The notes: generated by a model from the letters alone, not told the origin. A DNA stretch of 64,000 nt from Pseudanabaena sp. OTE_70b_metabat_355 (GCA_031377675.1 JANMFC010000526.1:120-64119), one strand, 5' to 3'. Shown: positions 19,823 to 48,776, counted from the first letter of the stretch. Numbers and translations are program-made.

Positions 19823-22786
19823 ATGATGCATCATCCCGACCCGAACGAGAAGTCCCGTGAACAAAGAATGGTAAAGAAGGACGCGGTTATGCGTCGTCTT
19901 CTTGCGGCGACTTTGTCTGTCAGCAGCTTGTGGCAGCTCATGCCCCCCACCGCAGTAGCACAAGTTGCTACTCCTCTGACTGCGGCTGGTACAGCGATCG
20001 ATAACACCGCCACAGGTACTTACATTGATCCCAATACTGGCACAGTGATAAACGCCACATCTAACCCAGTCACGGCGACAGTGGCTGAGGTAGCTGGTGT
20101 AACTGTCGTTTCGTCAGGAACGATCGACGTAAACGGCGGTAGTGTCACTACTGGTGATTTTGTTAATTACAGCTTCTTGATTACCAATACTGGTAACGAT
20201 CGCACGGCTCTGCACATTCCTACTTCCGCGACTACTACAGCAGCTGGTACTCTTGGTACAACTACACTGCCTGCTGTTCCGAACGTATTGCCTGCTACTG
20301 GGAGCAGAAGTGTATATGTCACCGAAATTAATGGCGTAGTCTTAACCTCACCTGTACTACTGCCTGCGAGTGGTAATACGAATGATCCTTTATTTATTAC
20401 TGCCGTTAATGGTTTAGCCTCTGGGGCTCTTCTCCCACCAGTAGGCGATATTCCGTTAGGTGCTGGCAGTATTCCTATTGGTGGCACGATCAAGGTGGTT
20501 GTCCCTGTCACGATCGCCGCAACGACCGCAGGTACACTAATACCAGTAACTTTGGGTAATACAGGAACTTATGTTGGCGATGTTGGCACTAACACCCAAA
20601 ACCAACCTGATGCGGGAAATCCGACTGCTATCCCACCTACTCCAGTTGAAACTGGCACTGATCTCGGTGGAGCAGATGAAGTCTACACCATCAACGTGAC
20701 CACAGCTTTACGAGCTACAGCACCCGCTAATGGCGTTCGTGAAGCCAGTGCCAAAAACACACAGACTCTTGCGACCCAAATCAATAACCTCGCCCTAGCG
20801 ACCGTCCTCAAAAAGCGCATCGGCTATGATACCAAGGGTACTGCAAGCTTTGCCGATGACACGCTAACCTATCGACTAGACTTGAATGTCGAAACATCCG
20901 CACCTGCTGGCAGTACAGGTATTACACCTGGGGCATTGACTGGTACAGCTATCAGAACCAAAGCCAATTCAGGCGTACTTGTAGCAACAACGGAAAATAA
21001 GGTCTTAATTTCTGATGTCATTCCTGCCAACACGATCTTAGATGTATCAGCATTAACACCTGCCACGGTGACCATTAATGGTGTGGTTTGGACAAGGGTT
21101 TATAGCACTCAACCTACAACAATTTCCGCATTAGCGCCTACTCAAGAGTGGTTGCTTGACGTTCCAACTGGTACTCCTGTTGTAACCCGCATTGGTTACA
21201 TTGCCAATGGTCCGATCGCATCAGGTTACTCAACCACAGGTGCTAGTGATCTTCTTGCGTTGAGAGTTCAAGTCATCACAACTGGGCTTACCGCTGTAAG
21301 CTCACCTGTGACGATCGCCAACATTGCCCAAGTCTTTGGTCAAACAGCACCTACTAGCGGTCCAGTTCTTGCGATTAGTCCGACCAATCCTCTGGTTTAT
21401 GACGAATCAGGCGACCAAAATCCGAACAACTACGAAAGTGGTTCTCCATCCGTACCCTCGTTCACCGATCCTCTATTTCCTGCTGCTGGTGTACCTCCTC
21501 TGCCCACTGGTATTGCAAGTCCTACAGGTGCCAACGGCACTGACACCAATGGAGTTGGCAACAACAACACAGGTACTGGACCTGGTGGGGAAGATAACAC
21601 CTTCACGATTAACCCTCTTGGCTCGGTCTTAAATGGTCCTCCAGGACAAGCAGGCGCGGTCGGACCTAACGGAAATAACACCGACTTTGTTAACAAATCC
21701 TTAGCCCTTCCTGCTGGTTTAGCATCTGGTCTTGCTCTCAGTACTGCTACGCCTGCGATTACGCTTGCCCAGCGCACCGTTGTCTTTACCAATACAGTTC
21801 AGAACCCCTCCACCAACACAGCCCAGTTGGACAACGTAACTTTGGAGCCAATCACGGCTGCTCAAGCTGCGGCTGCACCTACACCTGCCTTAGCTCTAGC
21901 AGACTTTGTGCTTCCAACTACAAGCAATGGTGAACCTTTACCTAATGGCACTACGGTCACAATTGCCTATCCTGTTGGTTCTGTTGCTGGTGTATCGGGA
22001 AATACAGCCACTTACACATTAAGTGCGACTGGGTTTGATCTAACCCAAAGCACAATTGGTGCTGTAACTTCTACAACAGGTGTCGCAGTTAAGCCAGTCA
22101 GAATCAATTCTATTGCCATCGGTGATCCTCAGGACTACAACGTAATTGTGGTATTGCCAGTCTCCGCCCTTGCGACAAGAGCCTATTCTGTGCCGATCGT
22201 CGCTTATGTAGACAGTAACGTCAGTAACTCAGGTGTTCTTGGTACTGGTAGTGGCACTGTTGCTGATCCTTTCAGAGGTGGATTCAAGAGTTTTGATTCA
22301 GATGCACCATTCAACATCAAGATTGATCGCGTGTACACAGGCTACTTGGATCTCGATAAGAAATCTCGCGTCATTCAAGGAACTGGTCCCGCAGTAGCTG
22401 CTGGTGACGTAGCGTTTTCCAATAGTGCAAAGAGTCCAGCCCCTGGAAACATTCTTGAGTACCTTCTTACTTACAAAAACATTTCCACACTCGCAATTGG
22501 CACTGCCAATGTCGTTTTGAATGCGAACAACATCGTTATTACTGAAGATGGCGCGACTCTTCCTAACAACTGGGCTACGACAACTTTGAACGTGCCTAGT
22601 ACTGCCACTGTAGCCTTAGATGCTGCTGGCGTTGCGACCCCTACTTACAGCGCTGTGATCACCTTCTTCAACGGTGCGACAGCTGTGACGACAGTAGATC
22701 CCAACGTAACTAGGTATCTCGATAGCATCCCATCTCTAACCCCTGGTCAGACTGGATTCTTCAGATTCCAACGTCAGGTCAAATAG
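19823..22786 (+). CDS. Secreted beta-strand-rich DUF11-like surface protein, 987 aa (candidate major filament subunit)
   Basis: Signal peptide ending AVA|Q, N-terminal AAGTAIDNTATGTY motif, Ig/DUF11-like domains, and a C-terminal DUF11-like domain ending GFFRFQRQVK. Confidence 0.85.
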   Translation: MMHHPDPNEKSREQRMVKKDAVMRRLLAATLSVSSLWQLMPPTAVAQVATPLTAAGTAIDNTATGTYIDPNTGTVINATSNPVTATVAEVAGVTVVSSGTIDVNGGSVTTGDFVNYSFLITNTGNDRTALHIPTSATTTAAGTLGTTTLPAVPNVLPATGSRSVYVTEINGVVLTSPVLLPASGNTNDPLFITAVNGLASGALLPPVGDIPLGAGSIPIGGTIKVVVPVTIAATTAGTLIPVTLGNTGTYVGDVGTNTQNQPDAGNPTAIPPTPVETGTDLGGADEVYTINVTTALRATAPANGVREASAKNTQTLATQINNLALATVLKKRIGYDTKGTASFADDTLTYRLDLNVETSAPAGSTGITPGALTGTAIRTKANSGVLVATTENKVLISDVIPANTILDVSALTPATVTINGVVWTRVYSTQPTTISALAPTQEWLLDVPTGTPVVTRIGYIANGPIASGYSTTGASDLLALRVQVITTGLTAVSSPVTIANIAQVFGQTAPTSGPVLAISPTNPLVYDESGDQNPNNYESGSPSVPSFTDPLFPAAGVPPLPTGIASPTGANGTDTNGVGNNNTGTGPGGEDNTFTINPLGSVLNGPPGQAGAVGPNGNNTDFVNKSLALPAGLASGLALSTATPAITLAQRTVVFTNTVQNPSTNTAQLDNVTLEPITAAQAAAAPTPALALADFVLPTTSNGEPLPNGTTVTIAYPVGSVAGVSGNTATYTLSATGFDLTQSTIGAVTSTTGVAVKPVRINSIAIGDPQDYNVIVVLPVSALATRAYSVPIVAYVDSNVSNSGVLGTGSGTVADPFRGGFKSFDSDAPFNIKIDRVYTGYLDLDKKSRVIQGTGPAVAAGDVAFSNSAKSPAPGNILEYLLTYKNISTLAIGTANVVLNANNIVITEDGATLPNNWATTTLNVPSTATVALDAAGVATPTYSAVITFFNGATAVTTVDPNVTRYLDSIPSLTPGQTGFFRFQRQVK

Positions 22787-22798
22787 TAGTTGATCGGC

Positions 22799-22841
22799 AT
22801 GGAGTAACTAGGATTACATTTACTAATCCTAGTTACTCCAT
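22799..22841 (+). terminator. Perfect 18-bp stem hairpin just after the 987-aa gene
   Basis: ATGGAGTAACTAGGATTA-N7-TAATCCTAGTTACTCCAT. Confidence 0.7.
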
Positions 22842-22996
22842 TCTTAATTGAGATAGGGAACATTTGGGTTCCAATGTCAAGTCAAGTAGATAATTGATCT
22901 TTGAATTATTAACTAGGCTTAGCTAGGTAGCTTGCCTAGTTAGTACTTCCTTGCCCAAATACTATTCACACATTGTTCACAACTCAGACAAACCAA

Positions 22997-23563
22997 ATGA
23001 AACGTATAAACTTAATTGGCTTAGGCGCGATCGCCTTGATCGCCACGACTGCTTTTTCTGGAGTGATGCCAGGACTAGCCACCTTGCAGTCGCGTGACAC
23101 CGCGATCGCCCAGACCGCTAAACAAGATTCTCCCGTCAAATTAGTTCTCGCTGCCGAAAAAAGAGCATTACTTGATATTGTCTCTGGACAGAACAAATGG
23201 GTTCCACTTGCGCCTAACGCATCACTACAGCCTGGCGAAACAATTCGTTATGTCGTCACCGCCAGCAATACCAGCGATCGCGCCATCAAAAATCTAGTTG
23301 TGACTCAACCGATTCCCAAAGGTTCAGTTTATGTTCTAAACTCAGCAACCTTACCCAGTATTGACGGAGCAAAGGTAGAGTACAGCATCGATGGCGGCAA
23401 AAACTACAGCGCCAAACCCACAATTCGCGTCAAGAACGAAAACGGCGAAATTGTCACTAAGCCTGCACCTGAGACTATGTATACAAATGTCCGATGGACT
23501 TTTGGTGAGAGTCTTTCTCCAAAAACAGCTTCCAACGCAACTTATCAGGTTCGCATTCGCTAG
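22997..23563 (+). CDS. Secreted single DUF11-like domain protein (candidate periplasmic chaperone/cap)
   Basis: Signal peptide MKRINLIGLGAIALIATTA..., PGETIRYVVTASN, NLVVTQPIP, ends ATYQVRIR; ATG at 22997 preferred over TTG 22973. Confidence 0.85.
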   Translation: MKRINLIGLGAIALIATTAFSGVMPGLATLQSRDTAIAQTAKQDSPVKLVLAAEKRALLDIVSGQNKWVPLAPNASLQPGETIRYVVTASNTSDRAIKNLVVTQPIPKGSVYVLNSATLPSIDGAKVEYSIDGGKNYSAKPTIRVKNENGEIVTKPAPETMYTNVRWTFGESLSPKTASNATYQVRIR

Positions 23564-23642
23564 ACATTTTTCTTTGCGAAGCTTTTCATAACGTTGTTCT
23601 TTGTAAGGACGCAATTGATAAATCTCTTTCTGCTAGCGTGAC

Positions 23643-23716
23643 AGGGCAAGCACGGGGGCATTGCCCCTACCCGAATAATTCATGATCTGTAGGGGCTGCG
23701 CCCCCGTGCCAGCCCT
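23643..23716. repeat. GTAG-type REP doublet (REPIN-like)
   Basis: AGGGCAAGCACGGGGGCATTGCCCCTAC ... GTAGGGGCTGCGCCCCCGTGCCAGCCCT in inverted orientation. Confidence 0.75.
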
Positions 23717-23777
23717 CAATCATGAGGATCGCTAATTTTTAAAGATGCTTTAAGGCAATTTGAGGTTACTTGTTTCA

Positions 23778-25364
23778 ATGAAGATTAAAAGTTGCACAAC
23801 AAAACAAAAAATTCTGCGAAACAGCTTCAAGTTTGCCGCAACTATTCTGATGGCTGCATCTCAAATCTGCCAATCCGCCCTTGCACAAGGACAGTCTCAA
23901 CAAAGACGACCTGAACGAAGAGCAACATCAGCAGCCACGGTTGAAATTTTTAACACGGCTGCGTATCAATACAGCTTTCCCGATCCCAATGATCCTAAAA
24001 AAGAAATTACTATTAAGAGTGAGTCGGCACAACTTCAAGCGGAACTGATTGACCCGTTCGGTAGGGTGACAGCTTGTGATGGTGGGCTTCTGTCTGATTA
24101 CACAGGCTTTAGTGTCGGTTTGTATGAGCCTCTTAACGATCTTGGTGACTTTGGCTTGCCAATCGTTTTAACTGGGACAGTGCCGCCAAATCAAGTCTCA
24201 GCTAGTAATCGATTTGTGGGACTAGAGCCAAATTTTTATAATATTAATCCCTTTTTCTTAACCAACGGCGATCAAGGCAAATTTAACTTCCTGTATGACG
24301 ACAGTCGTGGTCAAGTTGATATCGGTCGTGTCAATATTCTTGTCGTAAAAACTGCTGCTAACTCATCTTTAGGTGGAAGAAGAATAAAGATTACGATCAC
24401 TTCACGGGTTGGAAACATTGTCGGCTATACAGCGACTTCGTTAGACGGAAAAGCAATTACCACAGATGGTGGAGGCACTTCGGTTAACGGTACGATTGAC
24501 GTTGCTAATGCCGCTACAGTTGGACTTGGCTTGGCGGTGTTTAATCTTGCCATTTCATCATGCGATGCCGTATCTCTACAAATTTTAAAGACAGGCGATC
24601 GCGCTGCTGCACAACCTGGCGATATCGTCATTTATCGCTTAAATATTCGCAACCTTTCTACATCCGCAATCAGAGATCCTGAAGTTCGCGATGATTTGCC
24701 GCTCGGATTTCAATATGCAGAAGGCTCCGTAAAAGCTGAATTTGGTGGAGTACAAGTTCCCGTCACCATCGAAAAGAACGGCAGAAGTCTGATCTTCCGT
24801 CCCAACATAGAACTCCCTAGTGCCAGAGACAATGTTGCGTTGACGGTCGTTTATGCCGCACAAGTTACCAATGATGCCATTCGTGGCACAGGCATCAATC
24901 GCGCCACAGTTCAAGGAACACTTAGTTCTAATAACTCGATCGTCCGTGACGGTCCCGCATTTCATAAGCTCAGAGTTAGCCCCGGAATTTTGTCTGATTG
25001 TGGAACTTTAGTCGGTCGAGTATTTGTCGATAAGAACTTTGATGGCGAGCAGCAACCAGGCGAACCAGGAGTTCCCAATGCTGTGCTTTATATGGACGAT
25101 GGTAATCGGATTGTCACCGATCCTAATGGTCTATATTCTCAAAGTTGCGTACTTTCTGGCAGTCGGACTTTAGCGATCGACCTAACTTCTGTGCCTGGCT
25201 ATACCCTCGCGCCAAATCTGTATTTTGCCGAACGCAATAGTCAATCTCGATTGGTACGCTTAGCCCCTGGCAGTTTAAATCGAGTTAACTTTGCGGTTAC
25301 TCCCGTTGCGCGTGGACTAAGTACCAACATTAACAGTAAGCCAGAACAAGGTGGAGCAAAATAA
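23778..25364 (+). CDS. Secreted DUF11 + SdrD-B-like domain protein (candidate base/anchor subunit)
   Basis: Signal peptide; EIFNTAAYQY motif; one complete DUF11 domain (LQILK...RDDLP...GINRATV); C-terminal GRVFVDKNFDGEQQPGEPG. The stop overlaps the next ATG (TAATG). Confidence 0.85.
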   Translation: MKIKSCTTKQKILRNSFKFAATILMAASQICQSALAQGQSQQRRPERRATSAATVEIFNTAAYQYSFPDPNDPKKEITIKSESAQLQAELIDPFGRVTACDGGLLSDYTGFSVGLYEPLNDLGDFGLPIVLTGTVPPNQVSASNRFVGLEPNFYNINPFFLTNGDQGKFNFLYDDSRGQVDIGRVNILVVKTAANSSLGGRRIKITITSRVGNIVGYTATSLDGKAITTDGGGTSVNGTIDVANAATVGLGLAVFNLAISSCDAVSLQILKTGDRAAAQPGDIVIYRLNIRNLSTSAIRDPEVRDDLPLGFQYAEGSVKAEFGGVQVPVTIEKNGRSLIFRPNIELPSARDNVALTVVYAAQVTNDAIRGTGINRATVQGTLSSNNSIVRDGPAFHKLRVSPGILSDCGTLVGRVFVDKNFDGEQQPGEPGVPNAVLYMDDGNRIVTDPNGLYSQSCVLSGSRTLAIDLTSVPGYTLAPNLYFAERNSQSRLVRLAPGSLNRVNFAVTPVARGLSTNINSKPEQGGAK

Positions 25365-28300
25365 TGAAAAACACTTCTGCTCCTCTTCTCAAGCTAGCAA
25401 TTTTCGCCTTCCCGCAAGTGATGTTGTTGCTGATTGCACCATCAGTAAGAGCGGATGTAGTCTCAGATGTAAGCACCGAAAGCAAAAAAACTGACATCAA
25501 ACAAAAAGACTCGTTAGCGAATCCAGTTAAAGTTTTACCTGTTAACGCTGAATCGGTAAAGGTTGAGCCTATATCGGTAAAAGTTGAGGCGATCGCTTCT
25601 CCAAAAGTCGATCCCCAAAACATTACCATCGAAAAGCCTGCCGAAAAGCCTACTGAAAAGGTAACAGGTCAAAACGAACCCGCAAACACTGCTAACCTGA
25701 CAACAAATCCTCCAAAAAATCCTCCAAAAAATCCAACAGTCTCTCAATCTCCCGTTGCCCCAGAAACTACTCCAAATCCCACTACACCAACCCCAGCTAC
25801 CGCTCCAACTAATTCCACTTCGCCACGCATAACCATCCTCTCGCCCACCGCTAACACGGTGATGGATGCTCCCGCCGCAACAGTGGTAATCCAAAGCCCT
25901 AGCAATACCAAAGTTGAACTTTTGGTAAATGGCAAACTCGTTGACTCTAATTCAATTGGGCGATCGGAATTAGATGAAGTCAATAAAACCATCACGCAGA
26001 CTTGGTATGGCGTACCCCTACAAGCAGGTGAAAACATCCTTTCCGCAAGGGTCGCAGGAACTGAGCAAACCCTGAGTTCAGTCACTGTCAAAGTCAGAGG
26101 CACACCCGTCAAACTGGCGATCAATACCCTAGAATCGCGCATTCCTGCGGATGGACGCTCGTATGCCACAGTTGATGGACAACTCGTTGATGAGAATGGC
26201 AATCGCTCCAATTGGGATGCGATCGTTACTTTACAGGCTAGCGATGGTGAGTTTATTGGTACTGATGCGTCACCAGAGCAGCCAGGGTTTCAGGTTCAAG
26301 CCAAGCAAGGTAAATTTACCGCGCAATTAAAATCGGGGCTGAAAGCAGGCACAATCATCATCCGAGCGCAAAATGCTCAGATGGAAACTTTTACGCAGGT
26401 TCAGTTTGAGACGGATTTGCGTCCATCCTTAGTCACGGGTGTAATCGATCTACGGGTTGGTGCTAGAGGTACGGATTTTTATCGTAGTTTGCGTGAGTTT
26501 TTACCTAGCGATCGCGATAATCGCACTCAAGTCGATCTCTATGGCGCTGTGTTCGGCACAGGTCGAGTGGGCGAATGGCTAGTCACAGGCGCATATAACA
26601 ATAGCCGCACCCTTAATCAAGATTGCAGTGGTAACAGTAGCCTATTTAGTGGCGAAAAATATTGCGGTACGCAATATCCCGTCTATGGCGATAGCTCGAC
26701 CGCGTCCCAAGCCGCCCGTTCCTACGACAGTTTATATTTGCGTTTTGAGCGGACTTCATCCGTAAAAGATGCCAGCCCCGACTACTTCATGTGGGGTAAC
26801 TTCAATACTGAGGAGTTTGCCTCGCGATCGCAGCAATATTCTTCCATTTCGCGTCAACTACATGGAGCCAAAGGTAATTTTAATCTTGGTGATGTGCAGC
26901 TCACGGGATTTTATAGCAATGTCGGCAAAGGCTTTCAACGCGATACGATCGCTCCCAATGGCACAAGTGGAACTTACTTTCTCTCGCGTCAGCTATTAAT
27001 TAGTGGCAGTGAGAATGTATTTGTCGAGCTAGTTGATTTCTTTAGTGCAGGAACAGTGGTTTCTCGTAAAGAAGCGGTGCGGGGCAAAGACTACGACATC
27101 AACTACGACAATGGCTCATTGCTATTTCGGCAGCCTCTTTATCAAACCGAACTAGGTGATAAGGGCGAACTCCTGCGCCGTCAGGTTGTGATTACCTATC
27201 AAAATGAACAAGCAGGCGGAGATAGTAGTATCTACGGCGGACAACTGCGCTATCACCTCAATCGCAGCCAATCTCAACCAAGTTCACTCGCTGTAAATTA
27301 TTTCAAAGAAAGTCAAGGGATTCGTAATTTTGTCCTGTATGGGGCAAATGCGCTAATTTCGTTTAGCGAAAAAACTCAACTAACAGCCGAATATGCCCGA
27401 TCAGAGAATGATTCGGAAGTTGTGGGATTTGTGAGTGGTTCGGCATATCGATTTGAATTAAATAGCGAGATTGCAGGTATCCTCGGCAAAATCTACTACA
27501 ACAAAGCTGAGACAGGTTTTGCGAATAATGCCACGATCAGTTTTGTGCCAGGGCAGACTAGGTTCGGCACACAGTTAAGTGCTAAGGTCGGCTCTACGAC
27601 AGATCTAAGATTTCAATACGAGCAGGAAAATAATAATGGCATCGCGCCCCGCCCTTTAACTGTTCTCACCGATTTGCTTACTCCCCGTCAGGAAGCAGTT
27701 CCAGGTACGGCGGTGGATAATTCCTTACGCACGATTAGCTTTGGATTGCAGCAAAATATTGGCGCGGCTCTGCTCAATCTCGATCTGCTCTATCGCGATC
27801 GCCAAGATCGCCAAACACCAAATGTACTATCGAGCAACTCAACCCAACTGCGATCGCGGGTATCAGTGCCGATCGCCGAGAACCTCAAATTTTCTGCTCA
27901 AAATGAAGTCAGTCTCTCCTCTAGCGCTGATGCCGTAATTCCCGATCGCAGTGTTGTCTCTCTAGATTGGACAATTGTTCAAGGCTTGACCGCAAGATTG
28001 GGTCAGCAATGGTTCCATTCAGGCGCTTTAGCAGGAAGTTCGATTACCAGTGCGGATTTGCTGGGAGAATATAGACTCGGCACTGATACTAGTTTGACGG
28101 GGCGTTATTCCGTTGTCGGTGGCGGCAACACCACCTCTACACAGGGTTCGGTAGGACTGAATCAGCGTTGGCAAATCATGCCAGGTTTGCGCTTAGGGTT
28201 TGGCTATGAAAAAGTATTTGGCACGTTTGCTTCCGCAACCACGACCGCGACAGGCACGCAGTTTCAGCAGCCTGTCGCGGTTGGGCAGTCCTCTAGCTCT

Positions 28301-31117: not shown

Positions 31118-31131
31118 AGGGAGATAAGATT

Positions 31132-36300: not shown

Positions 36301-39300
36301 ATACTGGCCCCTTATCAGCAGGACAAACTAGTTCCTTTACGCTGACGGTAAATCCTGGAGCAACAGTGATTACGGCAGTTCCCAATACGGTTGTGGTCTC
36401 TACCGAAGGAGAGGCAAGTACAACCTTAGCTAATAATACTTACCCTGATCCCACCAGTACCTTGGCAGCGGGTTCATCCACTCGTGATATCGCGGTAGAA
36501 AAACGGATAACGCGGGTTTCTGGTAGTCCGATCGCGCTCACAGATACTACTCCCACAGCTATTACCTACGTTGCTGCTGCTCCTACGGCAACTCAATGTA
36601 CAGGAGCATTACCAGCAGGAGCTGGGGTGACTCCATTTACTCCATCAGGAGGGACTAATCCCGCAGATGACTTTTCAGGAACTGGCACAAACGTTGCGGC
36701 AATTGATACGGCAACGCTTGCAGCATCTCGCAGGTACACCTGTCCCGCACTTACGGCTGGACAATATGTTCAGTACAAAATCGCTGTCGGCAGTAATCAG
36801 TCTTCTGGTAGTGGGAAGGACATTGGTATTAGTTTCAATGATGCTATTCCCTCAATCCTTCAAAATGTAAGCTGGTCTTGTTCTATTCCCGAACCTGGGA
36901 TTGGCGGCGGCGGCGGTCCTGCTGGCAATAATACCTGTGATACCAGTGTTCTAACTCCTCCCACTTATCCCACTCCTGAAATAACAGGAACTACTAATAC
37001 AATTAGTCTTCCTCGCATTGGACTTAGGAAACGAGGCACGGGTAATCCAGGTGAAATCCCCTATGCATTGATTACTGTAGTGGGGCGGGTTAATCCTAGT
37101 GCCACGGCAGCAGACTTAGCGAGAATTGATAATATTGCTAACTTAGGAACTGATGCAAACCTAAACAATAACTCTTGGACAGTTCAAAGTGGTAGTGGTG
37201 TTGTACCTACACCTCCTGACTTAACGATTACTAAAACGGGCATCGCTAGTATTAATAATTATGCTCAGGGAACTTATACTCTTGCCGTTGCTACTACTGC
37301 CGCATCTACCCCAGCTACTAATCGAATTACTGTCATTGATACTTTACCCACGGGTTTAGATTTTGTTTCTGCATCAGGCACAAACTGGACTTGCAGTTCC
37401 GCAGGCTCAATTATTACTTGTTATTCAGATACAGATATTCCTAGCAATACAACTAGCGCTGAAACCATCGCGGTGACTGTTAAAGCTAACTCTGTAGCTG
37501 TTTTACCCACTGTCGTGATAAACCGAGCTAGCGTTAGTACGGCCAGTGAAACGATTTTAAATAATAACAACGCCACCGCCAGCACAACTATTAATGCGCC
37601 TGTTTTACCGAATTTAACTGTTGGTAAAACTGATGGCGGGGCAACATTTACTCAAGGAGTTAACGGTACTTACACAATCACCGTCAATAATACGGGGACT
37701 GTAGCGACCAGCACTCCGATCACGGTTACTGATACCTTACCCACTGGATTAACTTACTTCTCAGCAACGGGTACAAACTGGACTTGTTCTAATTCGGGTC
37801 AGATTGTTATTTGTAACACCAGTCAAGTTATTAATAACGGTTCTAGTGCAACTCCTATTACGCTTATTGTGACTCCAACGATTGGTACAGGTACAGTCAC
37901 GAATAATGTGCGAGTTGACACTACTGCCAATGCCGAAACCACTACGGCAGATAACACGGGAAGTGACACGACACCCTTACAAACTAATATCACTGATATT
38001 TCCATTGCGAAAACTGCTCGTAGCTTTGATGGATTATCTGCTGTCACCAATTTCCAACAAGGACAGCAATATCGCTATCGTTTGGCGGTAACAAATATCA
38101 GTGCCACTGTGCCAGCCGTTGCGCCGATTACCGTTACTGACCTTTTACCCACAGGCTTAACTTATCTCTATAGTGCTAGCACAGATGGGTTTACCTGTTC
38201 CGCTACAGGGCAAACAGTAACCTGCGATCGCCCTACCAATTTAGCCCCAAGTAGCACTGTAAGCGTAGATTTAGTAGTCCAAGTTGGCGGTTCAGCCCCA
38301 GCAAGTGTGACTAACCAAGCACGGGTGACTAGTGTCAGCGATACTTGCCCTGACTTTACTTGCACAGGCGGTACAAAAGACAATAACCGCACCACTCTCA
38401 ATAATACGATCGGTGCTACGGTAGATCTTGCGATCGTTAAAACCGCAGTAGATCAAGATGCGGTCACTGCTGGCAATCAGTTCTATCAAGATGGTCCAGC
38501 CGTCTATAACATCACTGTTACTAATAATGGTCCATCTAACTATGCTGGTTCGGTGATTGTCAATGAGAATTTGAGTGCCATTACTCCTTCCGATCCTAAC
38601 TTTACTTATGTTTCCCATACCGACAACACCACTTGGACTTGTACCAGTGGCGGCGGCTCTTGTGTTGGCAATAAGAACTTGGTATTTACCAAAACTGGCG
38701 GTTTACTCGCTGGTGAAAGCTCCACGATCGCCCTAACGATCAATGTTCCTGATGGCGTAACTGGCTTGAAAACAAACGTCGCCAGCATTGATGCTGCAAC
38801 GATCACGGCTGCAAATGACACTGTGCCAGGTAACAATACCGAGAATGAAGTCGTAGATGTTTTGGATAACCTAACCACCTTGACTTTGGTGAAAGATGAC
38901 AACGATGGTACGGGTGAACCAATTAACGCCGATCTACAAACTAAATTCTTTAGAGGTGGTATCGGTAAATATACAATTGTGGCAACGAATACTGGAGGTT
39001 CCGCCGCTAAAGCCCCCGTTACGATTAGTGATACTTTACCCAGTGGCTTAACTTACGCGGGTAATAGTCTTACTTCCAATTGGCAATGTACTGCGGGGGG
39101 TGGTAATAGCTTCTCCTGTATTTACGGTAATTGGAATCCTACTTTTACTACCTTTACTCAAGCGAATATGCCCGTTGGCACAACCTCTGGGGTAGAGATT
39201 TTGGTTAATGTGTCTAACACAGCCACTCTATCAACCTTAGATACAACTCCTCCCGCTCCAGATGTTTATAACGCAGGTTTAACTACAAATACAGCCAGCA

Positions 39301-41825
39301 TCAGTGGTTCTAACTTTACGACTGTCAATGCTTCCGAACAAACAGTAATTATTGAACCTGCCGATTTAGCGGTGACTAAGGCGATCGCGCCTAGTCCTTT
39401 AGTCGCTAGTGGTACAGGAACCTACACCATTACGGTAACGAATGTAGCATCGGCTGCAAGTACAGGTGTATCTTATCCACAAATCTATCTGCAAGATTAT
39501 TTGCCCACAGGTTTAAGCTATACATTACCTTTACCCACTACAGGTGCAAGTGTCGGAGATGGTTGGGTATTTATTGGTTATAACGAGAGTGCAAAGGAAG
39601 TTACCTACAAACGCACAACCGCGTTAGCAAATGGTGCTTCAACTAATATCACCCTGCCTGTTACAGTGTCGGCATCACCGCCAGCCAGTGTCACTAACTT
39701 TGTGCGGGTCGGAGGTTTTACGCCTGAGCCTGATTACGATCTTGCGACTGCTGGATATCAAGATCCTCGATTAGCCACCTGTGATGCGTCCTTTGGGGCA
39801 AGTCAACCCGTTAACAACTGTTTTGCTCTCACAACACCAATTTCAGGTGGTGTGTCTACGGACTTAAAAGTAACCAAAATTGAGGGGACAGATAACGATA
39901 ATCCTCCCAATCCAGCAGTTGCTTTTAATACCAACTTTCCCTACACCATTAGGGTCGCTAACGTTGGTGGCAGTAATGCTGAGACTGTCACCTTAACCGA
40001 TGTTTTACCCGCTTCGTTAGAGTATGTTTCTCACAGCATTGATGCAGGTGACGTTACTATTACCAATCCCTTCAGTGTTTCACCTGCAAACCTAACTCGG
40101 ACTTGTAATTATGCGCCTGGTACTCGTACTTTTAGTTGTAATTTACTGCGAGTTTTGACAACAGAAAGTGATGCCGATCCCATTGATATTACCCTTACAG
40201 TTAGGGGCGTAGTATCAGGAATTGTCGATAACACTGCCACAGTAACTTCAGTTACGGCGGATACTGTCACTGCGAATAACACTGAATCCGAAAAAGTCTT
40301 GATTAGCCCAGGTGGTGCTAATAGGATAGAGGGTAAAGTCTTTAATGATTTAAGTGATAATGGTCTGTTTGATGGTCTTGAAACTGGCACTGCGAATGTC
40401 ACCGTGCGACTCTATCAAGATAACGGTACGACTAACGGCTCTTTTGATGCGGGTGACACTCTCATCGCTACAGGCACTACCAATGGCACGGGCGACTATA
40501 GTTTTACGACTTCATTAACAGGTAACTTTGTTCTGAATGTGAATACCGCCACCCTGCCATCTGGTCACGTTCTCACCCCAACTGCAACACCCGTAACTTT
40601 CCAAACTGCGGTGTTAGGAACTCTTGATCAAAATAATAACTTTGGTCATAAATCAACTGCCGTAGCGACCGATTTTGGTGATGCACCCGACACTTATGGC
40701 ACAAACCTTGTTAATAGCGGTTCAGAAGGGATTGGGGCATATCACACCGTCAACACCAATATTCACTTAGGTGCAACTGTGCCAGATGCGGAAGCCGATG
40801 CGGCGACCCCCTTAAATGGTACGGGTGATGATGTTACTGGTACTGATGATGAAGATGGAGTTACTACCTTCGCGGCTCTGACTACTAGTACTACGCCTTA
40901 TAGCGTTGGGGTGACAGTCAAAAATACTACGGGCGGCAATGCCAATTTAGTCGGTTGGATTGACTTTGACCGTGATGGCGTTTTTCAAGCTGATGAAGGT
41001 GCGTCTGCCATAGTAGCCAATAGCGCCACCACTGCAACCCTCACATGGAGCAACATCGGTACTACTGGACCAAATATTGTTGCTGGTAATACATACGCTC
41101 GTTTTCGGATTACGACAGATGCGATTACAACCAGTAGTACAGGTGGTGCAGCAACCAACGGCGAAGTTGAGGATTATCCCTTAACTATTGGTGCTGTTCC
41201 TCGTCTCAACCTTGTCAAGCGAATTACCGCGATCAATGGCACTAACATTACAGGATTCGCTGATGGTACGGATGTGCTGCCATCCAATGACAATGATGCG
41301 AAATGGCCCTCACCAAATACTCAATATTTACGCGGCGCGATCGCCTGTACGGCGGGATCACTTTGCAACACCACCATCGCTGGCGTTAAACGAGACGACA
41401 CTGTGGAATACACAATTTATTTCCTTGCTAATGGTACGGATGCTCTCAAGAATGTAAAAATCTGCGATCGCATCCCCGCCAATACCACCTTTGAGCAAAA
41501 CACCTATGCGACTGGGAAGGGTATCTTACTAGGCTGGGATAGCCAAGCGGTTCCAACGGCTTTACCCGATCCTATCAACTCGACACCAGAAGTACCCTCA
41601 ATTAAACAGTGGCTAACCAACGCCATTGCCGATCTACCAGACAAAGGTAATTTTGTACCTGCTGGCACTTCTCTACCCAATCCACCCTGCGGAACCGACC
41701 CAAATAACAACGGTGGTGTGGTTGTCGATGTTGTATCAGGCGCAACTACTATCCCGATCGCCACTGCATCAGGTGTTCCCATTAACTCCTATGGGTTTGT
41801 CAGATTTAATGTCAAAGTCAACTAG
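33300..41825 (+). CDS. Giant adhesin-like protein, 2841 aa: N-terminal domain, 12 DUF11 repeats, SdrD-B-like, GEVED and C-terminal truncated DUF11-like domain
   Basis: Long basic N-region plus signal peptide (QPAYA|). I count 12 D/N/T-L-x-x-x-K repeat starts (TDLSVVK through TDLKVTK). DFGDAP...GEVEDY; ends SYGFVRFNVKVN. Confidence 0.88.
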   Translation: MFRALKNFLNSNSIGNKRRAASPKPENQTKNRIDNQIENQSKRSGRIASKNRTNKKAKISIQKSRKQNQLKRVSRFLGIVFTTFVLMLQLSGLGLLFTLQPAYAATTLAIEPITWDFVGLDSNKPESQGPNTYVVGARVCNLGIEDARNVSVRFIKDGVDNGYAFIRLQSGEVYTFDRVKANVPANNAVSADIYGRIKLTTGSIAGGYTFDTPANGSLLKTKYRINYTPTNCQDFYYNFEVTRTDAAWNTYQKYYLRATADNAGTVETARPRQSYIEKLISQARNEVYFFGCDALGGVAYAGPTVSVGVGDTFTCQARAHTATAYPQMSFTSDIPNVIFQVLDVQSTYSDPVGGVNSTVYADGCGWVQDPTDPRYHLSPGACSSETGFANTYSDQYPYTAPPTEGKGAVGNDITTIYKIKVIAFPNGIPNPIKVSNVILDYSGSSYHYNADYGIAPNVVNINVVTPSATDLSVVKSHVGNFNFGNNTYTLTVSDDVNSSSAKAPVILTDTLPAGYTFVDQNALLSGTQPLSGPSAVNWNCETSGQVLTCLYDTDGDGVGDNFPDGGTNALTLNVNIANGALPSGTTSTNFVRVALNTAQTDSNPANNTSSDPTTILPNADLAIVKTLADGDLTVGGNQASFVTGRQGTYNLQVTNLGNITATTPTITDTLPSELQFVSGVGTNWTCSAVGQNVTCTSSQNIAPAATTNVTLTVLVRDTSSTSTINTAIVSSPTYDAILTNNTSSVTTPITRPTPDLSITKTPSPVTLILNKNSNYTINVSNVGSDATSGTIKVDEIFPTGFGMQYIAHAGSGWSCIYSDSTPTTRPCQSGDTTNGTGTTVGTQNITFYNPGPLAAGASSAITLTVKATLDPGSTVNNTVKVSTPGDGGTGTKTAISPTNIGKPDLSIIKTHADPMTLSTNNDYTITVTNSSTAGTATTTGPISVTETFPSTGSFAYVSHSGSGWSCIFEATGTSPVSPRACLSGDTTGTASGTTRTITFYNTGPLSAGQTSSFTLTVNPGATVITAVPNTVVVSTEGEASTTLANNTYPDPTSTLAAGSSTRDIAVEKRITRVSGSPIALTDTTPTAITYVAAAPTATQCTGALPAGAGVTPFTPSGGTNPADDFSGTGTNVAAIDTATLAASRRYTCPALTAGQYVQYKIAVGSNQSSGSGKDIGISFNDAIPSILQNVSWSCSIPEPGIGGGGGPAGNNTCDTSVLTPPTYPTPEITGTTNTISLPRIGLRKRGTGNPGEIPYALITVVGRVNPSATAADLARIDNIANLGTDANLNNNSWTVQSGSGVVPTPPDLTITKTGIASINNYAQGTYTLAVATTAASTPATNRITVIDTLPTGLDFVSASGTNWTCSSAGSIITCYSDTDIPSNTTSAETIAVTVKANSVAVLPTVVINRASVSTASETILNNNNATASTTINAPVLPNLTVGKTDGGATFTQGVNGTYTITVNNTGTVATSTPITVTDTLPTGLTYFSATGTNWTCSNSGQIVICNTSQVINNGSSATPITLIVTPTIGTGTVTNNVRVDTTANAETTTADNTGSDTTPLQTNITDISIAKTARSFDGLSAVTNFQQGQQYRYRLAVTNISATVPAVAPITVTDLLPTGLTYLYSASTDGFTCSATGQTVTCDRPTNLAPSSTVSVDLVVQVGGSAPASVTNQARVTSVSDTCPDFTCTGGTKDNNRTTLNNTIGATVDLAIVKTAVDQDAVTAGNQFYQDGPAVYNITVTNNGPSNYAGSVIVNENLSAITPSDPNFTYVSHTDNTTWTCTSGGGSCVGNKNLVFTKTGGLLAGESSTIALTINVPDGVTGLKTNVASIDAATITAANDTVPGNNTENEVVDVLDNLTTLTLVKDDNDGTGEPINADLQTKFFRGGIGKYTIVATNTGGSAAKAPVTISDTLPSGLTYAGNSLTSNWQCTAGGGNSFSCIYGNWNPTFTTFTQANMPVGTTSGVEILVNVSNTATLSTLDTTPPAPDVYNAGLTTNTASISGSNFTTVNASEQTVIIEPADLAVTKAIAPSPLVASGTGTYTITVTNVASAASTGVSYPQIYLQDYLPTGLSYTLPLPTTGASVGDGWVFIGYNESAKEVTYKRTTALANGASTNITLPVTVSASPPASVTNFVRVGGFTPEPDYDLATAGYQDPRLATCDASFGASQPVNNCFALTTPISGGVSTDLKVTKIEGTDNDNPPNPAVAFNTNFPYTIRVANVGGSNAETVTLTDVLPASLEYVSHSIDAGDVTITNPFSVSPANLTRTCNYAPGTRTFSCNLLRVLTTESDADPIDITLTVRGVVSGIVDNTATVTSVTADTVTANNTESEKVLISPGGANRIEGKVFNDLSDNGLFDGLETGTANVTVRLYQDNGTTNGSFDAGDTLIATGTTNGTGDYSFTTSLTGNFVLNVNTATLPSGHVLTPTATPVTFQTAVLGTLDQNNNFGHKSTAVATDFGDAPDTYGTNLVNSGSEGIGAYHTVNTNIHLGATVPDAEADAATPLNGTGDDVTGTDDEDGVTTFAALTTSTTPYSVGVTVKNTTGGNANLVGWIDFDRDGVFQADEGASAIVANSATTATLTWSNIGTTGPNIVAGNTYARFRITTDAITTSSTGGAATNGEVEDYPLTIGAVPRLNLVKRITAINGTNITGFADGTDVLPSNDNDAKWPSPNTQYLRGAIACTAGSLCNTTIAGVKRDDTVEYTIYFLANGTDALKNVKICDRIPANTTFEQNTYATGKGILLGWDSQAVPTALPDPINSTPEVPSIKQWLTNAIADLPDKGNFVPAGTSLPNPPCGTDPNNNGGVVVDVVSGATTIPIATASGVPINSYGFVRFNVKVN

Positions 41826-41988
41826 TAATTAAAAAACAAGGTCAAAAACATGAAATTCCCAGCTAGTCATTATTATCCCAGTCCACCTAGTTCTTTTCCC
41901 GAACCTATACCTAAAGCGATCGCGGGAAATCGTTAATATCCAAAGCTCAAGCAATCCGTTACCTAATCAACAGCTTTAAACAATAGCC

Positions 41989-44211
41989 ATGAAATTGAAG
42001 TCGCGCCCTCGTTTTTACACTAGTTTACTTCTGACATCAGCCTTGGCGATCGGGGGTAGCTTCTCACTCGCCAAGTCAGCCCTAGCACAAGCTCTAACTC
42101 CTGCGGGTACGCCGATCACCAACGAAGCCACAGGCAGCTTTGAGGGCAACACCACACCAGGAATACTCACAGTCACGTCTAACACTGTCACCTTATCAGT
42201 CCAAGAAATTGCGGGTATCTCGGTAGTCTCATCAGGTAACTCTCAGCCAACTAAGGCTTTACTTGCGACTGAGTTCCCGAGTATTACCCCAGGTCCATAT
42301 CAAGGTGTTGAAGGGATAAACAACAGTGATATCGTCTATTTCGACTTCACAATCACGAATACAGGCAACAGTCCTACCGCCTTCTATATTCCCAATACAG
42401 CAACAGTTACAGGTACAGGTGGTGGTACATTCCAAGGTATCGCAGTTACTGCTGTCGATCCCGATGGTACTGGAACTAGGCCAACAACAACTTTTACAGT
42501 GCCTAAAGCTGTGCCATCAGTAGAAGCCGATAAAATCACTACATCTACTAACTTTTTGGGCGCAACCGATGGCTATATTCCTATCGGTGGCACAGTTACG
42601 GTCAGAGTTGCCGTAAAAGTCACAGGAGTTGCCGTTACGGATATAACAAAAGTCGTTTTAGGTGGACAGAATACGGCGGGAATATCTGTCAATGGCGGCG
42701 CAGATTTTGTTGCTAATGGCTTGCTTGATGTCTATACATCCGATCTTGCGAATGGTACACCAGTTCCTAACACGGGTTATATCGCGAATACTGGTAATCT
42801 TGGTTATGCAGGTGTATCTGGTATTGACCAAACACTTGAAACCAACGGTAATCCTGTTAATGGCGATGCTGCCTTCTTTAGAAGAGAAGCTAGTGCAGAA
42901 GATACTACATCGATTACCGCAGGGACAGACTACGGCGATGCACCAGATACTTTCAAGACCTTATTGACAGTATCTGGAACTGGTTTTACTGCTTCATACG
43001 CTAACAGTGGCGCTAGCCAAATCATTGATGCTGCTCCCGTCAAAATCAGACTAGGTGCAAATGATCCCGATGCTGAAGCAACTGTTACGGCTGTGACCTC
43101 TCCAACTAGTGCAGATAGTCCTAACGGCGATGGCGCTGATGAAGATGGTGTCTCTTTTCTCACTGCGCTTACCACTAGCTCCACTACCTTCACAGCTACG
43201 GTTAACGTCACCAATAACACAAGCGCACCTGCCGTACCTGCTTACTTAGTTGGTTGGATTGACTTCAATGGCAATGGTGTTTTTGATAACGCAGAGCGAG
43301 TAGCTTATAGCTCGACCGCAGGGGAAATCAATGCTATCCCTACAGGCACATCGACTGTCACTTTGACATGGACTGGACTAACTGGTCTGACTTCAGGTGT
43401 TAAATATGCCAGATTCCGCTTGACTACTGATACTAGAGTACTCGGCGGTGCTGGTATTGATACTGCTGCTGGTACTGGTGCTGGTACTGCTCTACTTGGT
43501 GGTGGTACTGCTAATTCATTCACAGCCGCATCGGTTAATGTTGCGACTAACAATAATCCCTTCACTCCTTTAGGTAAGGGTGAAGTCGAAGACTATTCGA
43601 TTAATGTTGGCGCAGTCCCTAGTTTAAATGTCGTGAAGCGGATTACCAGTATCAATGGCGTAGACATCAATGATGAGATTCGTACTGCGACTACCCCTCC
43701 TTCTAACCCTGCCGATGCCAAATGGCCTACCGACGGTGTTATCAAGTATCTGCGAGGAGCGATCAACTGCACGATCCTTGCACCTTGCAATGGTTCCACG
43801 ATCACAGGGGCGAAAACTGGCGACTTGGTAGAATACACTATCTATTTCCTCGCTAATGGGACTGACGATCTTAAGAATGTCAAAATCTGCGATGCTATTC
43901 CTGCGAATACCACCTATTTAGCTGGTTCAATCGTTTTGGGCTGGGATAGTACTGGAGGAGTTTTACCTAACCCTAATGTAGCGATTACAGCAGGTGAAAC
44001 CGCACTAACTGATGCGACGGGTAAATTTTTGGCCATAAATACATCCGATGTAACGGCTCCTTCGGGTAGTGCTTGTGCAACCAACGCAGCCAATATAAAT
44101 GGCGCGATTTACATCAACTTTGGCGCAGCCCCTGTCATACCTTTTGCGACTAGTTCTGCTACCCCCAGGAGTTCTTACGGTTTTATTCGTTTTAAAGCGA
44201 CCCTTAAGTAA
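41989..44211 (+). CDS. Secreted DUF11-like + GEVED protein, 740 aa (candidate minor subunit)
   Basis: Signal peptide (ALA|Q), TPAGTPITNEATGSF, a domain similar to domain 1 of the 987-aa protein, DYGDAP...GEVEDY, and the same C-terminal module as the giant protein. Confidence 0.86.
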   Translation: MKLKSRPRFYTSLLLTSALAIGGSFSLAKSALAQALTPAGTPITNEATGSFEGNTTPGILTVTSNTVTLSVQEIAGISVVSSGNSQPTKALLATEFPSITPGPYQGVEGINNSDIVYFDFTITNTGNSPTAFYIPNTATVTGTGGGTFQGIAVTAVDPDGTGTRPTTTFTVPKAVPSVEADKITTSTNFLGATDGYIPIGGTVTVRVAVKVTGVAVTDITKVVLGGQNTAGISVNGGADFVANGLLDVYTSDLANGTPVPNTGYIANTGNLGYAGVSGIDQTLETNGNPVNGDAAFFRREASAEDTTSITAGTDYGDAPDTFKTLLTVSGTGFTASYANSGASQIIDAAPVKIRLGANDPDAEATVTAVTSPTSADSPNGDGADEDGVSFLTALTTSSTTFTATVNVTNNTSAPAVPAYLVGWIDFNGNGVFDNAERVAYSSTAGEINAIPTGTSTVTLTWTGLTGLTSGVKYARFRLTTDTRVLGGAGIDTAAGTGAGTALLGGGTANSFTAASVNVATNNNPFTPLGKGEVEDYSINVGAVPSLNVVKRITSINGVDINDEIRTATTPPSNPADAKWPTDGVIKYLRGAINCTILAPCNGSTITGAKTGDLVEYTIYFLANGTDDLKNVKICDAIPANTTYLAGSIVLGWDSTGGVLPNPNVAITAGETALTDATGKFLAINTSDVTAPSGSACATNAANINGAIYINFGAAPVIPFATSSATPRSSYGFIRFKATLK

Positions 44212-44220
44212 TCCTGCCTA

Positions 44221-44250
44221 AAAGGGCTAACTGCCTACAGCTAGCCCTTT
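44221..44250 (+). terminator. Hairpin between the 740-aa and 275-aa genes
   Basis: AAAGGGCTA...TAGCCCTTT. Confidence 0.5.
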
Positions 44251-44284
44251 CTAATGGAGTCATCCCACAGCCAAAACACCATTT

Positions 44285-45112
44285 ATGTCAAAATCATTCT
44301 TTCGAGAATCTACTCGCTTACTAGTAACCACCGCCCTACTTTTTGGCAGTCAATTTCCTTTGACTAAATCAGTTTTGGCTCAATCGACTCCTGCTGGCAC
44401 TATTATCCCCAATGCCGCGCTCGGCAGTTTTGAAGGAGTAATATCAGTTACAACGGTTCCTCTTAATTCTAATTCCGTAACTTTTGAGGTAACCGCGCCA
44501 ATTGCGTCTAACCCAAGACTATTGCTAGTCAAGCGCATCACCGCTATTAATGGTGTTGCGATTACAACTGTAGTTAATGATGGACTTGCCTCATCGGCTG
44601 ACGATAATGTGAACTGGATCTCTACGACTTCAACCACTCCAGTCCCCGCTTCGGCTCCTCCAAATGATTATTTAAAAGGAGACATTACTCGCAATGATGT
44701 CATCCCAGGCGATCGCCTAGAATATACAATTTATTTCCTATCTGCGGGTGATGTGAATATTAGTAATGTAACCATCTGCGACTTAATTCCGCCTAACACA
44801 ACATTTGAAAACAATGCTTATGGTAGTAATTTAGGTATAGTTTTTGCCAACAGTACACCGATCACTCCTCTAACGGGGCTGTTTGATGGCGATCGCGCTA
44901 ATTTTTATCCCGCAGGAAGTCTGCCACCCACCACTTGCAAAAAACCGACAACTAACGCAACTTTGACGGCTGCTGATAACACAGATGGATTAGTTGTAGT
45001 CGATGTGGTGAAAATATCTGATCCCCTACCCAATTTCTTGCCACCTGCCACAGGTGTAGGAGCGCCCGCAAATTCCTATGGTTTCGTTCGTTTTCAAGTT
45101 AAAGTTAAGTAG
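44285..45112 (+). CDS. Secreted 275-aa protein made only of the shared N-terminal motif and the shared C-terminal DUF11-like module
   Basis: Signal peptide (VLA|Q), TPAGTIIPNAALGSF...SNSV, PRLLLVKRIT...EYTIYFL...ICDLIP...SYGFVRFQVKVK. Confidence 0.86.
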   Translation: MSKSFFRESTRLLVTTALLFGSQFPLTKSVLAQSTPAGTIIPNAALGSFEGVISVTTVPLNSNSVTFEVTAPIASNPRLLLVKRITAINGVAITTVVNDGLASSADDNVNWISTTSTTPVPASAPPNDYLKGDITRNDVIPGDRLEYTIYFLSAGDVNISNVTICDLIPPNTTFENNAYGSNLGIVFANSTPITPLTGLFDGDRANFYPAGSLPPTTCKKPTTNATLTAADNTDGLVVVDVVKISDPLPNFLPPATGVGAPANSYGFVRFQVKVK

Positions 45113-45206: not shown

Positions 45207-45950
45207 ATGACTTTTACCTTAGAGCCATCAAGCGATCGCGTCACACTTCCCGATCATACGCAACTTCCCGAATCTGACGGTACGTTTGTGAAAAATTTTC
45301 AAGATCATCCCCAAAGTATTTTACTCACCGATTCGATTGAGCCGATTTTACAAAAATATCATCCTGATGGACAATACGCGATCGGGCAAGATTCGGGTAT
45401 CTATTGGCGCATGACTGAACCACCCGAAAAGGGAGCCAAAGCCCCTAATTGGTTTTATGTCCCGAATGTGCCGCCGACCATAGATGGTCAGCCTCGCCGC
45501 TCCTATGTGCTTTGGCAAGAATTTATTGCGCCGCTCATTATTTTAGAATTTGTCTCTGGTACTGGTAAAGAAGAACGCGATCGCACCCCTTGGACGGGTA
45601 AATTTTTCATTTATGAGCAGGTAATTCGTCCTGCTTTTTATGGTATCTACGAAGTCCAAAAAGCCAGCATCGAGCTATATCGCCATGTCACTAATCACTT
45701 TGAATTAGTAACTGCCAATGAAAGAGGACATTTTGCGATCGCCGAGTTGGGTGTGGAACTTGGCATTTGGCAAGGAGTTTACCAAAATTCCGACTTGCCT
45801 TGGCTGCGTTGGTGGGACGCTGATGGTAATTTGCTATTAACGGGCTGGGAAACCTCTGAACAAGAAAAGTTAATTGCTCAACAGGAACGTCAAAAAAATG
45901 AAATTTTGATCGCCCAACTCCGTGCCGCAGGGATTGAACCGCAGCTATAG
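45207..45950 (+). CDS. Uma2 (DUF820) family protein
   Basis: LPDHTQLPESDG.FVKNFQ.HPQS, GQDSGIYW, LEFVSG and WLRWWD motifs. Confidence 0.88.
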   Translation: MTFTLEPSSDRVTLPDHTQLPESDGTFVKNFQDHPQSILLTDSIEPILQKYHPDGQYAIGQDSGIYWRMTEPPEKGAKAPNWFYVPNVPPTIDGQPRRSYVLWQEFIAPLIILEFVSGTGKEERDRTPWTGKFFIYEQVIRPAFYGIYEVQKASIELYRHVTNHFELVTANERGHFAIAELGVELGIWQGVYQNSDLPWLRWWDADGNLLLTGWETSEQEKLIAQQERQKNEILIAQLRAAGIEPQL

Positions 45951-48773: not shown

Positions 48774-48776
48774 GAC

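Follow-up and report, generated by a model that had tools for sequence, protein, structure and literature searches.

The isopeptide bonds of the CLIPPER adhesin domains have been proven by crystallography (PMC12617251; PDB 9IFR), and covalent links between fibre subunits have been described for BsaA of Clostridium perfringens, a member of the TasA family in which Asn35 of the donor strand is locked to Lys74 of the acceptor with Glu56, as backed by mutants (10.1101/2024.11.04.621531), and for the archaeal thread of Sulfolobus acidocaldarius (Saci_0406), in which the N-terminal alpha-amine of Asp24 is bonded to Asn57 of subunit n+2 (PMC9715654). Archaeal threads and BsaA are the nearest known mechanisms to the one proposed here for eight co-directional genes on the + strand (positions 19823-45112) of a 64,000-nucleotide stretch of DNA from the cyanobacterium Pseudanabaena sp. 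OTE_70b_metabat_355 (GCA_031377675.1 JANMFC010000526.1:120-64119), the whole of which is called the window below. On balance, we favour the view that the genes of this locus specify a surface-fibre system whose building block is a CLIPPER isopeptide domain (DUF11/DUF7619-type) that has been split.

By Pfam and NCBIfam matches, the domains in question belong to the same superfamily as the CLIPPER/DUF11 (PF01345), DUF7619 (PF24595) and DUF7925 (PF25546) adhesin domains (PMC12617251), and they carry Lys, Asp or Glu, and Asn at the same positions. TIGR01451 scored above its cut-off in the 196-, 534-, 2841-, 740- and 275-amino acid (aa) proteins, the 987-aa protein contains a DUF7925 domain, and complete DUF11 copies are present inside the 2841- and 534-aa proteins, where they run on with an x-N-x-A strand and then a final N-N-T...V strand. 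In the terminal domains of the locus, the DUF11-type triad is not complete within one chain: Lys and acid are retained, but the domain stops short of the Asn strand. In the CLIPPER adhesins, by contrast, all three triad residues belong to one chain and staple a single domain; here the cut falls past the F strand, the Asn strands are found at the N-terminus, mostly of other proteins, and two chains would be joined by the bond.

Such completion of split domains between chains had been proposed in a first-pass annotation of the window. Its open reading frames and translations were accurate, and every residue that it named was found in place: N61, K846 and D909 of the 987-aa protein (gene A), K63 and Q112 of the 196-aa protein (gene B), N65 of the 534-aa protein (gene C), K2640 and D2723 of the 2841-aa protein (gene E1), N45, K550 and D635 of the 740-aa protein (gene E2), and N43, K83 and D166 of the 275-aa protein (gene E3). 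The proteins A, C, E2 and E3 open with a two-strand donor motif directly past the signal peptide, and the C-terminal domains of A, B, E1, E2 and E3 all end at the F/Y-x-V-x-V strand. We identified three types among these truncated acceptors: class I (E1, E2 and E3), class II (A) and a third type (B). Two of the earlier assignments had to be modified. For A, the Lys stands (K846 in 62/62 homologues) but D909, which had been named as the acid, is Asp in 52/62, whereas E908 is acidic in all 62 (59 Glu and 3 Asp), so that conservation makes E908 the more likely catalytic acid of this class. The domain of B is truncated as described, but is not an ordinary covalent acceptor, with Gln at the acid position in 65/65 homologues.

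Within the 4.6-Mb assembly, the class-I acceptor domain was identified in this locus only, and the strict donor motif directly past a signal peptide only in the A, E2 and E3 proteins, the donor of C being a variant of it. A regular expression for the donor matched 1.7% of the N-termini of the other open reading frames of this genome, as against 62/62 homologues of A, and the donor pattern exceeds chance.

We found the N-terminal motif to resemble the strands missing from the C-terminal domains, as the first-pass annotation had held, when the mature N-terminus of each of five proteins was appended to its own C-terminus and the products were scanned with Pfam. The DUF7619 score rose by 9-13 bits in four of the five (E3, 14.5 to 27.5 bits; P0012, 20.4 to 32.5; P0014, 19.3 to 31.8; E2, 20.4 to 29.8), and the gathering score of 27 was reached only with the donor appended (27.5-32.5 bits). 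This gain stems from a second matched stretch, which crosses the artificial junction where reported (E3, P0012 and P0014; model positions ~85-126 of 133) and which did not appear with reversed or shuffled donors. On the assumption of ungapped stretches, the donor Asn is placed at DUF7619 model position 113 and the acceptor Asp at position 44, an identical one-residue offset for both from the predicted triad of this family, at ~5, 43 and 112 from the domain start (Lys657, Asp695 and Asn764, in a domain starting at 653; PMC12617251). Using hhalign, the last strand of class I plus donor matched class II with 92% probability (E = 6.6e-7); by this profile comparison, the two acceptor classes are related.

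We investigated the distribution of the system in a scan of one genome per species, in which we identified at least 575 loci encoding a relative of the 1917-aa protein of gene D, in Pseudanabaena, Nostoc, Fischerella, Tolypothrix, Calothrix, Leptolyngbya, Chlorogloeopsis and others, and analysed the best 80 loci in detail. The gene-neighbourhood survey suggested by the first-pass annotation was thus carried out within the cyanobacteria, and in these 80 loci it recovered a core order of donor-plus-acceptor protein A, small Gln-variant acceptor B, donor-only protein C, outer-membrane protein D of ~1200-1900 aa, and acceptor-only protein E with a variable head. Among the cyanobacterial genomes sampled, nine contributed ten loci with a common core A-B-C-D-(accessory)-E. 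The E2 and E3 proteins are additions peculiar to Pseudanabaena, with donors that resemble that of A, and three near relatives keep the order of beta-helix/OmpA protein, giant acceptor-only protein, ~720-aa donor-plus-acceptor protein and ~275-aa donor-plus-acceptor protein. In five loci (L059, L066, L069, L093 and L099), A-B-C-D was present and the flank that was retrieved contained no class-I acceptor protein; E may be farther off in these loci, or it may have diverged beyond the reach of the hidden Markov model (HMM).

Donors and acceptors are partitioned consistently between the members of this core. A donor is present in 62/62 homologues of A, and with its Asn in 68/68 homologues of C (58 by regular expression and 10 variants by eye), all of which are without an acceptor; it is found in 0/65 homologues of B and 0/74 of D. 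All 71 class-I acceptor proteins end no more than one residue from the end of the domain, with K83 and D166 invariant, and a donor accompanies the acceptor in only five of them. The homologues of B, in which K63 is kept in 56/65 and Q112 in every case, always end at the F-like strand. The usual state is therefore an acceptor whose chain has a complete Lys/Asp pair but lacks an Asn strand, standing beside two proteins, A and C, that have such a strand. As 66/71 acceptors are without a donor and 68/68 C proteins without an acceptor, completion within one chain cannot be the rule.

The acceptor profile matched 7531 cluster representatives at E <=0.001, of 1.84 billion, many of them generic multi-repeat DUF11 proteins. 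Among the 50%-identity representatives listed, 81/81 genuine full-length acceptor matches ended no more than five residues from the C-terminus; four apparent non-C-terminal matches were rejected as stretches of ordinary DUF11 repeats.

The 275-aa family provides further evidence as to which pieces pair. Its members have only ~4-8 linker residues from the last donor strand to the acceptor Lys strand, and the distance from the last-strand Asn to the acceptor Lys is 16-20 residues, compared with ~18-22 at the ordinary tandem DUF11 junctions of E1; in the representative P0172 the same junction occurs unsplit, with the preceding domain intact. E3 thus has the appearance of a tandem array that was severed one and a half strands too soon, and its donor would belong to a preceding domain supplied by another chain. 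We saw no folding back of the N-terminal motif within its own chain, an outcome that the first-pass annotation had considered: the AlphaFold2 model of the mature 275-aa protein leaves the donor disordered (predicted local distance difference test, pLDDT, 37-49) beside a confident acceptor (mostly >90). With the pattern of orphan donors and acceptors in the 80 loci, the short linker makes it well supported, from comparison of the sequences, that the domains are split and that the pieces pair between chains.

A Lys-Asn isopeptide lock between these chains, as the first-pass annotation had also claimed, is plausible on grounds of homology and conservation. It is so because the domains are homologous to a family with crystallographically proven Lys-Asn bonds (PMC12617251), because Asp and Asn map onto the predicted DUF7619 triad positions, because the Lys and the acid are invariant in both acceptor classes and the donor Asn is always present, and because the paralogue B keeps the fold with Gln at the acid position in 65/65 cases, which may be the very change that one would make for binding without reaction.

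Several results weigh against the favoured interpretation as a whole. The acceptor modelled by itself reaches pLDDT >90 and may not need a donor for stability. In 69/71 class-I acceptors there is a second conserved Asn (DNTDG), making an internal partner for the Lys conceivable; the profile alignment puts this residue well ahead of the position of the Asn strand. We also modelled with AlphaFold2 a natural in-frame read-through in the locus L005, which joins the acceptor of a 733-aa protein, through 24 codons and a signal peptide, to the donor of the next gene (a larger fusion with the second acceptor was dropped, as MAFFT placed every homologue on one of the two domains). This model has two short donor strands at pLDDT ~50-55, with the Asn strand below 50, and these two may pair mutually rather than with the acceptor. 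Foldseek searches of both models against the PDB returned only generic beta-sandwiches, nothing significant, and did not retrieve 9IFR. At the level of profiles, P0017, a divergent homologue, showed no DUF7619 gain with its donor appended, and an HMM of the last two strands of E1's own complete DUF11 repeats did not retrieve the donors, so that the likeness is visible at the level of the family profile and not as close sequence identity. A whole-repeat HMM put the donors at the right model positions with non-significant scores. Pfam gave no match for the class-II acceptor with its own donor, and a profile of the permuted sequences found no relevant match among PDB sequences.

The data show a conserved split of the domain, orphan donors and acceptors, and a link to the outer-membrane protein; from them we infer a covalent bond, polymerisation, a subunit order, and roles for the 196- and 1917-aa proteins. 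In the proposed assembly, the terminal domain of each acceptor protein keeps the first-strand Lys and the catalytic Asp or Glu and stops one strand before the Asn strand, and a ~40-residue extension past the signal peptide of each donor protein has the two missing strands, including the Asn. After Sec export, the donor of one subunit would insert into the open C-terminal domain of another, restoring a normal tandem-domain junction, and the Lys-Asn pair would probably react spontaneously, locking the two chains. E1, acceptor-only with a variable head, would form the tip, a position suggested by the highly variable heads and lack of a donor in E proteins; E2 and E3, with donor and acceptor, would serve as adaptors. 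A is placed in the shaft because it has donor and acceptor in every locus and because its gene is followed here by an 18-bp perfect hairpin. Hairpins often follow the genes of major subunits (major pilins). C, being donor-only and overlapping the start of D, would end the chain at the cell as a base or terminator, adjoining the translationally coupled D protein, which would export and hold the fibre. The 196-aa B protein may hold donors without reacting, in the manner of a chaperone.

The alternative that survives best, which we nonetheless regard as unlikely, is inter-chain pairing without a polymer, in which an acceptor-ended adhesin would be clicked, covalently or not, onto the 534-aa C protein in or under the outer-membrane protein. 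This would be a two-piece anchor for surface display, with the 987-aa protein as a second cargo or closing on itself. In most loci, D is accompanied by a single class-I acceptor protein and a single donor-only protein, sufficient for an anchor of 1:1 stoichiometry; C is translationally coupled to D; and polymerisation is inferred. Against this, A combines donor and acceptor in 62/62 loci, with invariant Lys and acid, as would be required of a repeating subunit; the short linker and disordered donor of the 275-aa protein prevent it from closing on itself; and a strong hairpin follows gene A, as is seen past major-pilin genes. In an exploratory mirror-tree comparison of distance matrices controlling for D, the donor of C moreover co-varied most with the acceptor of A (partial r 0.45), and least, by a wide gap, with the class-I acceptor (0.13).

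An improbable reading, which comes next, is that the C-terminal domain is a complete and autonomous sorting or docking domain read by D, as in the C-terminal domain of type IX secretion, and that the N-terminal motif is a separate recognition signal whose likeness to DUF11 reflects only general beta-strand character. It would account for the confident folding of the acceptor on its own and the failure of AlphaFold2 to dock the donor with confidence, as well as for an acceptor that is always at the extreme C-terminus of very diverse cargo and that co-occurs strictly with D. It does not account for a profile match that crosses the artificial junction and needs the order of the donor sequence, for Asn and Asp falling on the isopeptide positions of the family, or for a donor-acceptor spacing equal to that of tandem-domain junctions; and the Lys and Asp, invariant yet unpartnered within their own chain, would have no role in a simple sorting domain, in which a 196-aa paralogue swapping exactly the acid for Gln in 65/65 cases is likewise unexpected. 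A circular permutation, in which a protein's own N-terminal strands complete its own C-terminal domain as a closed loop with no subunit contacts, is already disfavoured and very improbable: A, E2 and E3 do each hold both parts, and nested or discontinuous isopeptide domains are known from Gram-positive pilins (such as GBS104-like_Ig and GramPos_pilinBB, with two segments in the survey PMC12617251), but the orphan donors and acceptors, the ~4-8-residue linkers, the lack of within-chain docking in AlphaFold2, and an order inverted relative to the nested domains (Asn strands first, Lys strand last) all speak against it.

The split-domain proteins are closely tied to D, the presumed barrel through which the first-pass annotation had proposed their export. 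Within the class, 32 sampled genomes encode the core of D, and 31 of these also have the acceptor domain, which was found in no genome of the class lacking D; at the loci examined, the two are separated by a few kb. The ~900-aa core, presumed to be a beta-barrel, is 92% identical to that of a Pseudanabaena metagenome-assembled genome and matches no Pfam family, even at E up to 10. It was weakly matched in four genomes of a sister lineage. Distant homologues (~28% identity) were seen in five non-photosynthetic relatives from another class of the same phylum (G052, G076, G094, G130 and G016), two of which (G130 and G016) have weak acceptor-domain matches too; from these homologies, the system may be older than Cyanobacteriia.

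The features of the locus are given in Table 1. Genes B and C have their lengths counted from TTG codons (22973 and 23760), with probable ATG starts at 22997 and 23778, respectively.

Table 1. Genes and sequence features of the Pseudanabaena locus, in window coordinates; functional roles are candidates.
Feature	Position	Strand	Length	Content and candidate role
Gene A	19823..22786	+	987 aa	Signal peptide, N-terminal donor, DUF7925 and other Ig-like domains, C-terminal class-II truncated acceptor; candidate shaft subunit
Donor of A	19961..20083	+		Residues ~47-87, AAGTAIDNTATGTY...SNPVTATV, Asn61
Class-II acceptor domain of A	22328..22783	+		Residues ~836-987, end FFRFQRQVK
Perfect stem-loop	22799..22841	+	18-bp stem	13 nt past the stop of gene A; -28.5 kcal/mol, z = -5.5
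Gene B	22997..23563	+	196 aa	Signal peptide and one truncated DUF11, Gln replacing the catalytic Asp; candidate non-covalent donor binder or chaperone
Gene C	23778..25364	+	534 aa	Donor variant VEIFNTAAYQY (Asn65), one complete DUF11, SdrD_B-like domain, no truncated acceptor; candidate base/terminator
Gene D	25364..31117	+	1917 aa	N-terminal Ig-like (invasin/Big_1-type), ~900-aa conserved core, two OmpA-like domains, low-complexity tail; candidate usher-like translocon
Accessory gene	31132..33300	+	722 aa	Beta-helix (NosD-like) and C-terminal OmpA peptidoglycan-binding domain
Gene E1	33300..41825	+	2841 aa	No donor; at least 10 complete DUF11 repeats, SdrD_B-like, GEVED, then class-I acceptor; candidate tip adhesin
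Class-I acceptor domain of E1	41181..41822	+		K2640, D2723, end FVRFNVKVN
Gene E2	41989..44211	+	740 aa	Donor (Asn45), Ig-like domain in common with A, GEVED, class-I acceptor (K550, D635); candidate adaptor
Gene E3	44285..45112	+	275 aa	Minimal subunit: donor residues 34-75 (Asn43), 8-residue linker, class-I acceptor (K83, D166)

The beta-helix/OmpA protein is optional, with 28 homologues in the 80 loci, mostly in Pseudanabaena-type loci and in some Nostocales, and it may be a peptidoglycan tether or a polysaccharide-active enzyme. The N-terminus of the 2841-aa protein (33300-33600) has a basic Lys/Asn/Gln-rich extension of ~75-90 residues ahead of the hydrophobic signal segment, also seen in its homologues in L005 (1526-1830) and G174, which is reminiscent of the extended signal peptides found on certain secreted adhesins of very large size. 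At residues ~1076-1306 (36525-37220), the same protein contains an internal domain that opens with VEKRITRV, compared with LVKRITAI in the acceptor, and that is complete, including both an Asn strand (ARIDNIANLG) and a last strand of its own; by this resemblance, it may be an unsplit cousin of the acceptor domain. The genes flanking the locus are unrelated, and encode a response regulator, a GUN4-like protein, an enoyl-CoA hydratase, a Uma2 protein and a FemAB/spermine-synthase-like operon. The Uma2-family (putative restriction endonuclease-like) gene lies 3' of the locus both here (45207-45950) and in a related metagenome contig (L001, 11048-11812), and the operon (46249-49466, - strand) consists of three tightly packed genes, for a DUF4178 protein, a spermine/spermidine-synthase-like protein and a FemAB-family protein.

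More tentatively, the locus could represent an unrecognised class of pilus in diderm bacteria, with at least 575 loci in cyanobacteria and perhaps further ones in other phyla, in which subunits would polymerise through natural tag and catcher halves of a CLIPPER domain, free of sortase and of a classical chaperone-usher pathway. Its components would be acceptors of three classes, a Gln-variant catcher that is inert and serves as chaperone, a terminator with a donor only, and outer-membrane assembly proteins of ~1200-1900 aa that form a new family. If so, bacteria with two membranes would have a further route of fibre assembly that is covalent, enzyme-free and modular, and a job would be found for a very common unexplained C-terminal module and for a large outer-membrane family without a Pfam entry. 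The molecular basis of adhesion, mat formation and symbiosis in cyanobacteria is poorly understood, and many Nostoc symbionts of lichens and plants carry the locus. For protein engineering, it would offer natural, related tag/catcher pairs and a natural non-reactive catcher.

A full-text literature search found no description of a split DUF11 fibre or of such a pilus, in line with the first-pass annotation, which knew of no matching named class. BsaA resembles the proposed system in its disordered N-terminal donor strand with an Asn, its acceptor with Lys and an acid, and its sortase-free 'exchange and lock', but has another fold and family, belongs to a Gram-positive species without an outer membrane, and has one main subunit, whereas this locus has three acceptor classes, a putative division into tip, shaft and base, and a dedicated outer-membrane protein. 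No locus protein had a TasA/camelysin-family match in Pfam, and the TasA fibre 8aur appeared only as a non-significant fold match (E = 0.025-0.075). The archaeal thread shares head-to-tail donor-strand complementation and covalent isopeptide links with no known assembly enzyme; it differs in its thread-specific bond and unrelated fold, and comes from an archaeon, with no outer-membrane component.

The chaperone-usher pili (type 1 and P) resemble the proposed system in organisation, with an acceptor-only tip adhesin, shaft subunits with an N-terminal extension and an incomplete domain, a donor-only terminator, and a small periplasmic Ig-like partner and large outer-membrane protein in the operon. 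However, no locus protein had a Pfam or NCBIfam match to Usher (PF00577) or to the PapD-like chaperone (PF00345/PF02753); chaperone-usher subunits lack one strand, where two are missing here, and form non-covalent pili, and their chaperone is a strand donor, unlike the 196-aa protein, which resembles an acceptor. There is no sortase domain in the locus or its flanks, and its proteins end in F-x-V-x-V-K/N with neither an LPXTG signal nor a membrane anchor. The type V pili of Bacteroidota (Fim/Mfa) have lipoprotein precursors that an Arg-specific protease cleaves before strands are exchanged, in contrast to the signal peptides of this locus, which by eye are of Sec type with an A-x-A-like site and no lipobox Cys. 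Finally, SpyTag/SpyCatcher, SnoopTag/SnoopCatcher and isopeptag are laboratory splits of intact Gram-positive domains. As in the proposed assembly, a peptide with one reactive residue completes a truncated Ig-like domain that has the other residue and the acid, and bonds to it spontaneously; these pairs are engineered, whereas this locus would be a natural split used for assembly.

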